The position numbers were made by a program. A stretch of 63,849 nt of DNA, counting the filler, from an uncultured Methanosarcinales archaeon (GTDB taxonomy: Archaea > Nanobdellota > Nanobdellia > Woesearchaeales > CAZXZL01), in assembly GCA_964645415.1 (NCBI GenBank). It is 11 parts of 11 records of this genome, joined end to end, with 100 filler letters (N's around TTAATTAATTAA, not from the genome) between each part and the next. Parts side by side here need not be neighbours in the genome. Positions count along the whole stretch, not along the records: positions 33,530 to 39,486 come from CAZXZL010000049.1; 10 more parts are not named here. One strand, 5' to 3'. Below, one piece after another: positions 36,001 through 39,000 of this stretch. Positions within the stretch are counted from its first letter, which is position 1. Each line of letters opens with the position of its first letter.

Positions 36001-39000
36001 GCAATATGTCCAAATAAAGATAAACCTAAAATAAGAGAAAAACTTACAGAACCATGATTCACTAAAGTTCCACCAATAAAAGAAAATAAAGGAGTTTTTA
36101 TAGTATAAATCACTAAAGTTCCTAAAAGTCCTACTAAAATATTTATCATAATATCACACAAAAGAGGTTTATTTTTAAAATTAACTACTCTTATAAAATC
36201 TAATTAGAATTATCTCCTCTATAAAAGGATGCAGCTACTTCTGGACTTATAGAATTAATAGTCACGCCAGTAGAAAATTCAAATCCTGCCCATTGTGCAA
36301 GACGAGGAGTAAAAACTATATGTGAATGCATATCGTTTTCATCATCACCATATTTAATATAGTAATTATATGAAGAATGAAACGATCTTAATTTCCTTAA
36401 TATCTTTTTAAAAATAGATGAAAAATCGTTTAATTCATCTCTTGATAATTCTTTAAATCTATTAATATGTCTTTTTGAATATAACCAAATTTCATAAGGA
36501 AAAAGAGATGCATAAGGAGTAAAAGCAACAGCATGATTGTTTTCAAAACACTTTCTATGTGAATTTTTTTCAATATTTATTACATCACAATGAGGACAAC
36601 CATCATAATTTTTAATATAATTATATTCTCTTTTAATCTTAGGAGGAAGAAAATTTAAGGATATAACTTGTGAATGATCATGAACTAAAGAAGCTCCTGC
36701 TTTCTCACCATCATTTTTAAAAACACTTACATAATCAATATCATCAGGAGAAGACAAATCATCAATACGAGACTCATATACCGCAATTAATTTATTTAAT
36801 TCAGATATAGATAGCATTGAAATATCTCTATTATGTTCTCTAACATTTACAATAACTTCATGTTCACCATAGTTTGAAGAATATGTAAAGAAATTATTAT
36901 CAGTTAATAGTTTAGATTGACCTTCTTTTGATACAGCTGGAAACTTATTAGAGAACCATCGCATTCTCCAAGGATTACCAATTCTTCCTTTTTCAGGAGG
37001 AGCACTTTTTTCATTACCTGGACAAAAAGGACAATTATGATCAATAACAGAAAGATTCTTTTTTTTATCAGGACCATGATTATCATATTCGTGTGGTCTC
37101 TTTCCTCTATCTTCAGAGATTTCTACATATTTTTCTAAAAAATAATGTTTTCTAAGTTCTCCCATTATGTCTATTCCTCATAAACTTTTTTCAAAGCAAT
37201 ATCATGAGCATCAAAGTAATTTTTAGATAAATGATCCCAACTTACTTTATCAACTAAAGCTTTAGCATTGATTTTATTCAAAACACGACCATGACGATGA
37301 TGACTTGCATAATCATATAATATATTCGTAAATTGATTTTTTATCTGATCATGTGATTTGTTTTTTCTATTTAAAATATATAGACCAGGATTTTCTAACT
37401 TTGAAACTTTTTCTTTCATAAAAGATCCAAATCCTGATAAATCACTTGTTAAAGCAGGACAACTTAATGACATAGATTCAGGAGGAGTATATCCCCAAGG
37501 TTCATAATAAGACGGAAATACACCAAAATGCATTCCAGAAATTGTATCCTCATAAGGTAAATCTAAAAGTCCATCAGTTCCATCTAAATATACTGGATAA
37601 AAGACAACTTTTACTTTATCTTCTTTTTTATTTAATAGATTGTTTTCATGAAATGCTTTTAAAATTGGATCATTTCCATCTTTTATATGATGAGTTGATA
37701 ATGGCGGATTACCTACATCTTTAAATGAATTTACTAATTTTTTTCTCATTAAGACTATCTCTTCAGGTAACATATTATTTTTAGTAAATTCTTTTTCAGT
37801 AATAATATCATCAAGAATTCTGGAAACAATATCATCTGATTTTTGTTTAACAAAGTTTTTTATTTGTGAATAGTGTGTTTTATGTTCTAAAACATCTCTT
37901 CTTATTCCATCATGACCTGCTGGGATAAAAAAGAATGTTACAATATTTCTTTCAGAATTTTCTTCTTTTAACTTTCTATTTAAATCTCCTAAAGATTCAA
38001 TAAAATAATCTAATCCTTTATTATAAAATTCATATCTTGCAGCTGTGAAAAAGAATAATGTATGTTCTAAGTTAAATGAATAATGAGGAAAAAAGAAGTA
38101 TTTACAGAATTCTCTAATTTTTTCTCGATTCATAGTATGTTTAATAGATGTTTCTTCAAAAGTATGATGTTTTTCAGTATCAATTCCATTAAGAACTAAA
38201 ACTTCTGGTTTTCTACCCAAGAAATGTGTTGCTTCTAGTCCAGTTATCTCTGATACAGTTGTAAATACATCACTTGCTAAAGCAGTTGCTTTCTCAGTAG
38301 TATGTTTTTCACCAATTCCAAGTTCTTTAGCTTTTTTATCAGGATCAATTTGATTTAATAAATTATATATCTTTTCTTTGTGTCCGCTCAAAGTCCTTCC
38401 AAGTATTGTTGCATGTGTTGTAAAAACAGTTGAAATTTTTTGTTTTGATGATTTAGCATGTAATATAGAAAATCCTGATAACCATTCATGTGCATGTAAT
38501 ATCACTTTTTCATTATCATTTATCTTTTTAAACTCTTCAACAAATTTTCCAACAGCAGTTGCCCAAAGCATTGGTTCTTCAAAATCCCAAGATGCACTAA
38601 TCGAATCAACCTTGAAATCTTCCCAATATTTTGCTTTAAGATCATTAATTTTTGGTTTTAATCCATCAAAATCAATTAATATTGTTTTAGGAGAGCCTTT
38701 AATTTGCCACTCACCATAATAACATTTAATTCCTTCTTTTTCTAATTTATCAATGATAAGTTTAATTTTATCAGGTGCTTCTATTTCATCAAAAGAAACT
38801 TCTGCATTATCTTCAAAATAAGGACCAAATAGAATATAGTTTTCATATTTTTTCATCATATGTCTTGTTTTTGTTTTTATGACAGTGTTAATCCCACCAA
38901 CTTTATTACAAACTTCCCAAGAAGCTTCAAATAGAAATACCATGATAACTAATTATGTTAATAATGATTTTTAAATTTATGATACTACTTAAGATTAATT

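Follow-up and report, generated by a model that had tools for sequence, protein, structure and literature searches.

A HIT-fold enzyme encoded beside an animal-type glycogen synthase as a candidate replacement for glycogen phosphorylase in Woesearchaeales

The glycogen synthase locus

What does a nucleotidyltransferase of the HIT fold do directly behind the gene of an animal-type (GT3) glycogen synthase? The question is raised by a Woesearchaeales genome of 961 kb (79 contigs; rated 100% complete and 1.46% contaminated), from which a joined stretch of 63,849 nucleotides, filler included, was analysed (the window, along which all positions are given). The two genes share one 5957-bp contig (C49, window positions 33530-39486): the synthase gene (590 aa) lies at 37171..38943 and the HIT gene, whose family we call HIT-A (321 aa), at 36200..37165, both on the reverse strand, with 5 nt (37166..37170, reverse strand) from the synthase stop to the HIT start. 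With both ORFs located, the gene pair of the preliminary description, a full-length GT3 synthase 5 nt upstream of a HIT gene, is real; judging by this spacing, the two genes probably form one co-transcribed operon. In each of two public DNA runs, one contig covers the two genes without a difference (the runs are possibly the source data themselves). The contig ends, upstream of the synthase, in a dispersed AT-rich repeat (39048..39486) that breaks the assembly; this repeat occurs in 57 copies on 34 contigs, 41 of them at most 500 nt from a contig end, and has no match in Rfam. A promoter scan stayed at chance level, and no relative was found in viral contigs.

Genes that accompany GT3 in relatives are found elsewhere in the window, all on the reverse strand: a GT4-type glycosyltransferase (16447..17673, contig C46), which by gene order opens the same glycogen cluster in relatives; a GH57 protein of the branching enzyme or amylase type (15269..16444, contig C46), from the same cluster; and two small DUF5752-like genes (14364..15245), which precede GT3 in relatives and are matched by our own profile and not by Pfam. 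The gene g00815, earlier described as a GT5 synthase, scores best as a GT4-type protein.

The synthase matches Pfam Glycogen_syn as a full-length domain (523.6 bits, E 1e-156, residues 6-589) and human GYS1 over residues 3-589 (E 2e-124), and its assignment to GT3 holds. The catalytic and diphosphate-binding residues of the human enzyme (R331, K337, E510, E518) are kept as R303, K309, E481 and E489, and the uridine-stacking residues as Y452 and Y464; in the relative G018 the operon holds a UGPase gene. Most of the G6P phosphate site is also retained (R579, R582, R586, K301 and H501 correspond to R550, R553, K557, R273 and H472). The phosphorylated tails are absent (590 versus 737 aa), and H, N and A stand at the positions of R580, R588 and R591, which we take to be the phospho-sensing arginines of eukaryotic GT3. 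The full catalytic core is shared with human GYS1 and yeast Gsy2: across the GT3s compared, the equivalents of R331, K337, E510 and E518 are invariant where aligned, the F481/Y493 stacking positions are aromatic, and the G6P positions K301, H501, R582 and R586 are mostly retained, but the tails are lacking and R580, R588 and R591 are not conserved. A review that covers DPANN GT3 (Cifuente et al., 2024; PMC11046441), in its accessible part, calls archaeal GT3s uncharacterised and does not mention GalT.

Two families related to At5g18200

The best PDB match of HIT-A is At5g18200 (1z84, E 9e-42), followed by 6k5z (E 5e-25) and by human and E. coli GalT (E about 1e-18); At5g18200 also ranks first by fold (E 3e-26, TMq about 0.8), which bears out the family call made before. 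At5g18200 (PDB 1Z84, 1ZWJ, 2H39) is the Arabidopsis ADP-glucose phosphorylase that McCoy reportedly described in 2006; enzymes of this type have had a structure since that year and no assigned function. HIT-A contains CPFCPG, and its residues C45, C48, H111 and H162, and C190, C193, H233 and H280, align with Cys/His of 1z84; we take the two sets to be the ligands of two zinc sites. HIT-A shares with At5g18200 both sets, the HxHxQ motif and the R-x-K-R and G-F-E motifs, but the two are about 28% identical, and HIT-A is encoded beside a GT3 synthase. HxHxQ, a motif of the GalT branch (bioRxiv 10.64898/2026.09.13.751320), reads H162-D-H164-S-Q166 here, with H162, H164 and Q166 invariant in 62 of 62 HIT-A sequences. 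The role of the plant enzyme is stated as unknown in PMC11066809, according to which NDP-sugar formation by the related HIT enzyme GGP is negligible in vivo.

An ordinary Leloir-type GalT, or another enzyme of sugar-1-phosphate exchange, could be read from the family scores and is the label that databases give to relatives: HIT-A exceeds the cut-off of TIGR00209 galT (116.8 against 102.1), but stays far under that of NF008724 (126.5 against 448). HIT-A is nearer to At5g18200 than to any GalT and its gene context is that of glycogen, as had been proposed earlier; a galactokinase domain is present in only 5 of 97 HIT-bearing genomes, and neither a galactokinase nor any GHMP kinase was found in the present genome. 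We regard this reading as very improbable, and the Leloir pathway was rejected on the scarcity of galactokinase.

A second At5g18200-like family, HIT-B, which has no Pfam or NCBIfam family, was found here beside GT3. It is related to HIT-A (hhalign probability 95.5), its top Foldseek match is 1z84 (E 1e-11), and its motif H-G-H-x-Q is invariant in 79 of 79 sequences. HIT-B was defined partly after the fact, from exceptions; the later search contributed only G054 and G082.

Distribution relative to glycogen phosphorylase

We sampled 151 genomes of the order, 113 of them with GT3, and detected glycogen phosphorylase (GT35) with PF00343 in 46 genomes, to which TIGR02094 added three. HIT-A alone, fixed before HIT-B was found, divides the 113 genomes into 62 with HIT only, 27 with GT35 only, 20 with both and 4 with neither, where 18.1 would be expected with neither (OR 0.048). 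The last four gaps closed only when HIT-B was added, which gives 66 with HIT only, 24 with GT35 only, 23 with both and none with neither (14.0 expected). These genome-level counts come from searches rather than ORF maps, in which longer opposite-strand frames masked some genes (L053, G062, G129). On a GT3 tree covering 108 of the 113 synthases, we count 14 changes of state for HIT and 26 for GT35, indicating many switches and not one clade; independent pairs point the same way in 7.0 of 10 cases and never the opposite way (median p 0.016), and with HIT-A alone in 5.9 versus 0.2 of 9 (p 0.031).

In each of the 24 GT35-only genomes the phosphorylase reaches 467 bits or more. Among the 14 of the 23 genomes with both that were examined, GT35 is frameshifted in G028, reduced to a C-terminal remnant in G113, and 27% identical with its motifs lost in G061. 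The present genome itself carries both routes, and its GT35, used as a query in a search without a positive control, had no match in five low-contig HIT-only genomes. Outside the order, GT35 is found in one of five HIT-A genomes (few genomes, of unestablished completeness).

The best reading of this distribution is that the HIT enzyme replaces glycogen phosphorylase, not pyrophosphorylases. The either/or rule between the two was absent from the literature that we found, and it offers a concrete candidate function for At5g18200-type enzymes; our search, largely without subscription papers, returned nothing on a GT3-HIT pairing or on physiological reversal of the synthase.

Distribution relative to pyrophosphorylases

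As the preliminary description stated, no GlgC was found in the present genome; galU and eukaryote-type UGPase were likewise not found (in the UDPGP search of this genome the control gave no match anywhere, though across the order the same model matched 8 of the 151 genomes), nor was a family I pyrophosphatase. The gene g00478, earlier considered as a source of UDP-glucose, is a weak candidate: it is LicC-like and lies in a tagF/tagD-type locus. Among GT3-bearing genomes, a pyrophosphorylase is present in 43 of 89 with HIT and 12 of 24 with GT35 only, and one of the operon type in 30 of 89 and 10 of 24, respectively. In many operons a pyrophosphorylase gene lies directly beside the HIT gene; GT3, HIT and pyrophosphorylase share operons in, for example, G049, G057, G080 and G091, and in G018 with its UGPase, and the closed genome G092 carries the operon type. 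With this independence, a role of the HIT gene as a GlgC/GalU substitute was rejected.

The HIT enzyme might nevertheless itself use NTP, also or mainly (NTP + G1P -> NDP-glucose + PPi), and acceptance of PPi as well as Pi would let it take the place of GlgC/GalU and GlgP together. The position of the HIT gene between glucokinase/PGM genes and the synthase would suit this, as would the row of ROK kinase, HIT-B, GHMP kinase and GT3 genes in G016, and the present genome, which lacks a convincing pyrophosphorylase, encodes a UDP-glucose/GDP-mannose dehydrogenase that requires an NDP-sugar. G016, G064, G088 and G101 likewise combine GT3 and a HIT enzyme with zero PF00483 matches. But the proportions above show no complementarity, and GT35-only G005, G031 and G084 also lack strong PF00483 matches, so a missing pyrophosphorylase is not specific to HIT and may reflect assembly gaps. 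HIT-A has the HIT fold and not that of PF00483 or PF01704 pyrophosphorylases, and we know of no characterised GalT-branch enzyme that acts as an NTP-using pyrophosphorylase; we consider this reading rather unlikely. In 58 of the 113 genomes all four named pyrophosphorylase types are missing; with the gaps in G016, G064, G088 and G101, this leaves the synthetic arm unexplained in part of the genomes.

The earlier proposal went further, to a storage cycle with no NTP step in which the HIT enzyme forms NDP-glucose (NDP + glucose-1-P -> NDP-glucose + Pi) to feed the synthase. The reaction is reversible in principle, and the missing GlgC, GalU, UGPase and family I pyrophosphatase of the present genome would fit. 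It is, however, uphill by some 11-17 kJ/mol; with 0.5 mM NDP, 0.1 mM G1P and 10 mM Pi, NDP-glucose would reach about 0.006-0.06 uM (assumed constants). Reversed HIT plus synthase equals glycogen phosphorylase reversed, so that nothing drives the cycle of three enzymes on balance and glucose would be stored only at Pi/G1P below about 3.6 (assumed constants). As HIT is distributed independently of pyrophosphorylases and complementarily to glycogen phosphorylase, the proposal is not supported, and we consider it most unlikely.

A possible two-step route of glycogen breakdown

From the families, motifs, gene order and either/or distribution, which are observed directly, we infer the substrate, the direction, the nucleotide (UDP or ADP) and a reversal of the synthase in vivo. 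We see an even chance that the HIT enzyme is an NDP-glucose phosphorylase that, together with a reversed GT3, does the job of glycogen phosphorylase. HIT would convert NDP-glucose + Pi to NDP + glucose-1-P via a His164-NMP intermediate; at high Pi it would drain NDP-glucose below the equilibrium level of the synthase, and GT3 would then run backwards (glucan + NDP -> NDP-glucose). The two would jointly phosphorolyse glycogen with NDP as a catalyst, and the breakdown would be completed by a GH133 debranching enzyme, PGM and a glucokinase encoded in that operon. Synthesis would still depend on a pyrophosphorylase that uses NTP, of either the PF00483 or the UGPase type. The net reaction is that of GT35 (TIGR02094), to which the distribution is complementary; but GT35 is one PLP enzyme, whereas GT3 and HIT would be two unrelated enzymes with an NDP-glucose intermediate.

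Textbooks treat glycogen synthase as one-way. Its reversal was computed to be uphill by about 15 kJ/mol, with NDP-glucose at about 0.5-2 uM; if kcat/Km is 1e4 to 1e5, the upper bound on reverse turnover is roughly 0.002-1 per second, well below phosphorylase (assumed constants). Sucrose synthase and T. litoralis TreT likewise are GT-B transferases that cleave a glucoside with NDP to give NDP-glucose (PMC6861944). Their equilibria are milder, and an alpha-1,4-glucan synthase is more difficult to reverse. HIT-only genomes keep the G6P-activation residues of GT3, which suits synthesis, and GT3 has no alignment column that sets HIT-only genomes clearly apart from GT35-only ones (in 4612 tests the best p was 2e-5, with kin not independent). 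HIT together with a pyrophosphorylase would make a futile cycle unless controlled.

Alternatively, HIT could act as a control valve that phosphorolyses surplus NDP-glucose to glucose-1-P, limiting glycogen or recycling NDP-glucose from elsewhere, with hydrolases (GH57, GH133, GH15, glucokinase) degrading glycogen and no useful reversal of the synthase. The chemistry would be that of At5g18200, several operons include glucokinases, the predicted reverse flux is slow, 23 genomes hold HIT and GT35 together, and a hydrolytic route is available in the form of a GH15-like gene in 43 of 66 HIT-only genomes; archaea without phosphorylase are thought to break down glycogen hydrolytically (PMC11046441, section 3.4.4). 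However, this explains less well why phosphorylase is absent only where HIT is present (0 of 113 with neither), the GH15-like gene is missing from the other 23 of the 66, and an equilibrium drain would itself pull the synthase backwards at Pi/G1P above about 3.6. We consider the valve a minor possibility. If joint phosphorolysis by GT3 and HIT is correct, glycogen synthase would serve breakdown in a large archaeal order; this would fill a gap noted in the 2024 review, where archaeal GT3 is uncharacterised and some archaea degrade glycogen without phosphorylase (PMC11046441), and re-annotation would be due for thousands of proteins that now carry the label GalT or hypothetical (HIT-B has 2145 matches).

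Wider gene contexts

Tentatively, and with somewhat less than an even chance, we propose a general module of a reversed Leloir glycosyltransferase (GT3 or GT5 synthase, TreT, or SPS/SuSy-like GT4) and an At5g18200-like phosphorylase of either family, which in most GT3-bearing Woesearchaeales would have displaced glycogen phosphorylase, leaving a phosphate-switched synthase that both builds and degrades. Such a module would add a further way of breaking down glycogen, not described before, and would give ADP-glucose phosphorylases their first physiological role. Both HIT families adjoin TreT-like and SPS-like genes. Where GT3 is absent, HIT-A adjoins TreT or lies one gene away in 2 of 8 genomes (for the TreT of T. 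litoralis, PMC6861944 describes production of ADP-glucose from trehalose), and no GT5 glgA was found in five HIT-A genomes lacking GT3. No phosphorylase cluster occurs among the neighbours of 80 HIT-A loci, and in 37 of 79 the gene at position +1 or +2 behind HIT-A is the debranching gene. The pairing had been taken for a mark of Woesearchaeales, but GT3 and HIT-A also share a locus in CPR bacteria (L059, L061), Micrarchaeota (L068) and Altiarchaeota (L082). Among 80 HIT-B loci, 24 are with GlgA, 11 with GT3 and 11 with SPS-like/fructokinase genes, and fusions of a GT5 synthase to HIT make up four of eight long matches.

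Gene Pair and Genomic Context

On contig C49 (window 33530-39486), one of eleven small contigs, all from one genome (961 kb, 79 contigs, GC 25%, completeness rating 100%), we identified an animal-type (GT3) glycogen synthase gene (37171-38943, minus strand; 590 aa; Pfam E 1e-156; human GYS1 E 2e-124) and, separated from it by 5 nt on the same strand, a gene for a 321-aa GalT-branch HIT protein (36200-37165, minus strand), for which the Arabidopsis ADP-glucose phosphorylase At5g18200 is the top match in both sequence and fold. We call this gene and its relatives HIT-A. The ORFs and matches uphold the pairing given in the preliminary description, and in two of the three public DNA runs compared, one contig covers both genes; the runs containing the stretch, labeled soda lake metagenome and from one study, are possibly the source data. 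The pair is a genuine feature built from known enzyme families.

The genome also encodes glycogen phosphorylase (GT35), PGM, a GH133-like debranching gene, two GH57 and three GT4-type genes. Contig C46, within the window, carries GT4, GH57, and two DUF5752-like genes, which stand immediately 5′ of GT3 in relatives, and both C46 and C49 terminate in a dispersed repeat; the cluster may therefore be split by assembly. This AT-rich repeat (window 39048-39486 and contig ends genome-wide) has a short palindromic core, 57 copies over 34 contigs, mostly at contig ends, and no Rfam match; it is possibly a MITE-like or REP-like element.

The absence of GlgC was confirmed: neither GlgC, GalU, UGPase, nor the NTP transferase of related operons was found in this genome, nor any GHMP kinase or family I pyrophosphatase. 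The single PF00483 gene (g00478), suspected earlier of supplying UDP-glucose, best matches a CTP:phosphocholine cytidylyltransferase, has TagF-like and cytidylyltransferase genes after it, and is thus an unlikely source. NDP-glucose (UDP- or ADP-glucose) consequently has no accounted-for source here; a gap in the assembly or a rival mechanism (see below) would explain this. The consecutive LicC-like cytidylyltransferase, TagF-like glycerophosphotransferase, and TagD-like genes (L001:1498-2214 / L349:3160-5506, contig C16) form a teichoic acid-like locus in an archaeal host. Within window 60485-63839 lie a UDP-glucose/GDP-mannose dehydrogenase gene, placed at a contig end, and genes for a Fic protein and for a ribbon-helix-helix-like protein, part of which resembles a degenerate NTP transferase. 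Elsewhere in the window, phosphotransacetylase adjoins acetate kinase (42076-44231; bacterial-type acetate fermentation genes), and polyamine genes comprise a deoxyhypusine synthase-like gene followed by a PLP decarboxylase, with an agmatinase-like gene on another contig (33561-35597, 41293-42075).

Gene Neighborhoods and a Second HIT Family

Of 578 confirmed GTDB loci, the 80 best were examined (HIT-A called in 79; many truncated by contig ends): 26 have GT3 immediately 5′ of HIT-A and 10 have PGM at +1; the debranching gene occupies +1 in 27 and +2 in 10. The recurrent order is GT4, GH57, two DUF5752, GT3, HIT, PGM or NTP transferase, debranching, glucokinase, GH15. No galactokinase or phosphorylase cluster recurs in at least three of these 80 loci, and galactokinase occurs in only 5 of 151 sampled genomes; that HIT-A, for all its GalT-branch membership, works as a Leloir GalT is highly improbable. 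Two CPR bacterial loci (L059, L061) hold GT3-HIT-A(-debranching) operons with no GT35 match, an arrangement that these bacteria and Woesearchaeota likely share by transfer. A GH15-like gene is present in 69/151 genomes (66 strong matches); this 335-aa family (L011:12855-13859; 66/151 genomes, 65 of these GT3-positive) has phosphorylase kinase alpha/beta subunits as its sole PDB matches.

At the GT3 loci of HIT-A-negative genomes, a 355-aa protein adjoins GT3 in G016, G020, G029, G040 (L153:5228-6292), and G086. No Pfam or NCBIfam family covers it; it carries R-x-x-R-P and H-G-H-x-Q motifs and aligns with HIT-A (probability 95.5), and in the alignment it lacks HIT-A's cysteine zinc ligands; its predicted structure (pLDDT 90.7) again has At5g18200 as top match. 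We regard this protein, HIT-B, as a new, unannotated sister family (2145 matches; source names Woesearchaeota, Chloroflexi, Bathyarchaeota). In G016, a 0.6-Mb genome with no PF00483 or GT35 match, a ROK kinase, HIT-B, a GHMP (HddA-like) kinase, and GT3 are consecutive (L265, contig C3).

Distribution with Glycogen Phosphorylase

Every search covered one fixed set of 151 genomes from the order (≥80% complete, 139 genera). GT3 is present in 113, and HIT-A is immediately 3′ of it in 47 of the 82 genomes carrying both. The HIT-A profile matched 100 genomes at E 1e-10, of which we counted 90 (E ≤1e-36) and dropped 10 weak partial matches; one of these, a genuine 33-aa terminus where a contig begins, comes from G034, which probably belongs in the class with both enzymes. 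GT35 was found in 46 genomes by Pfam and 49 by TIGR02094. Among the 113 GT3 genomes, 62 have HIT-A only, 27 GT35 only, 20 both, and 4 neither, against 18.1 expected. HIT-B occurs in 7/151 genomes, all GT3-positive and without HIT-A; one of them is the fourth exception, G054. Counting HIT-B gives 66, 24, 23, and 0 (14.0 expected), a zero that is partly after the fact since HIT-B was added from the exceptions, whereas the HIT-A table is not. The counts become 65/24/23/0 without the unpublished G123, and 66/18/23/0 without six short divergent GT3s. Of the 38 GT3-negative genomes, 29 carry neither enzyme. Fisher p-values for the complementarity (1e-9 to 1e-11) overstate it, as related genomes are not independent. 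In a FastTree phylogeny of 108 of the 113 GT3s, used in place of a species tree (G002, G011, G054, G067, G123, and four extra paralogues left out), the states are interleaved, with 14 changes for HIT and 26 for GT35, and independent pairs gave a median p of 0.016 (HIT-A alone, 0.031). Among the 14 examined of the 23 genomes with both enzymes, G028 and G113 carry a broken or reduced GT35 and G061 a divergent one; a frameshift in such a genome may be a sequencing error.

The short divergent GT3s (G031, G038, G084, G124, G146, G079; L194, L196-L198, L202, L159) occur only with GT35 and lack the conserved G6P histidine; GT3 adjoins GT35 in G084. Genome G126 has four GT3 paralogues, two almost in tandem (L259, L260, L250).

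Proposed Mechanism and Alternatives

The preliminary description had HIT running in reverse to feed the synthase, in a storage cycle without an NTP-to-PPi step. This finds no support: with assumed constants, NDP + G1P (glucose-1-P) → NDP-glucose + Pi costs 11-17 kJ/mol, and storage would require Pi/G1P below ∼3.6; as reversed HIT plus synthase equals glycogen phosphorylase in reverse, the three-enzyme cycle has no drive. PMC11066809 describes a related HIT enzyme, GDP-L-galactose phosphorylase, as reversible, yet with negligible NDP-sugar formation in vivo. We consider the proposed storage cycle quite improbable.

In the triangle of glucan, G1P, and NDP-glucose, GT35 links glucan to G1P, GT3 glucan to NDP-glucose, and HIT would link NDP-glucose to G1P; all sampled GT3 genomes could connect glucan to G1P, via GT35 or via GT3 plus HIT. 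Since at ordinary Pi/G1P the latter path should head toward G1P (assumed constants), we read GT3 and HIT as a putative two-step glycogen phosphorylase, our preferred reading, which we hold about as likely as not; against it, a slow reverse rate is expected (assumed constants), the G6P site is still kept in GT3, hydrolytic breakdown is an alternative route, and the synthetic arm is not accounted for in some genomes. Alternatively, the step run in reverse could belong to the neighboring GT4 (best model glgA_Coryne, below cut-off) rather than to GT3. That HIT instead works as a control valve on NDP-glucose is rather unlikely.

Pyrophosphorylases bear on whether HIT is itself an NTP-using or dual enzyme. 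Counts are low for glgC-like (8/151), galU-like (6), and UDPGP (8) genes, and higher for any PF00483 (139) and the operon-type NTP transferase (44; best model rmlA_long, below cut-off), which is often immediately 3′ of the HIT gene; G018 has the order GT3-HIT-UGPase. No HIT-pyrophosphorylase link emerged, named types occurring in 43/89 HIT versus 12/24 GT35-only genomes, but G016, G064, G088, and G101, with GT3 and HIT and zero PF00483 matches, are counter-evidence. We judge an NTP-using or dual HIT unlikely.

Sections of PMC11046441 (including 3.4.4) report DPANN GT3 as uncharacterized, and bioRxiv 10.64898/2026.05.13.725050 reports glycogen synthase in 68/123 complete Woesearchaeales, its main text, as far as available, mentioning neither galT nor phosphorylase. 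In the literature searched, including parts of PMC11606122, bioRxiv 10.64898/2026.09.13.751320, PMC6329318, PMC9287172, PMC6861944, and PMC7688234, we found no account of the GT3-HIT pairing or of its either/or relation to phosphorylase; the enzyme families are known, and the function we infer for the pair is new and testable.

Other Partners of HIT Enzymes

In the eight genomes with HIT-A and no GT3, HIT-A adjoins TreT (G108), a GT4-HAD fusion and TreT (G055), a GT4-like gene (G047), or an NTP transferase (G063), with no partner of such kinds recognized in the other four. Four of eight long HIT-A relatives are GT5 synthase fusions. Among the best 80 of 483 metagenome loci, HIT-B partners are GlgA-like (24), GT3 (11), or SPS-like (11, often with fructokinase fused or adjacent), and none was recognized in 34. 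NDP-glucose is the substrate common to all recognized partners. In high-GC soil contigs, an SPS-like GT4-PfkB fructokinase fusion lies immediately 5′ of HIT-B (L297:3469-5982), a possible two-step sucrose phosphorolysis.
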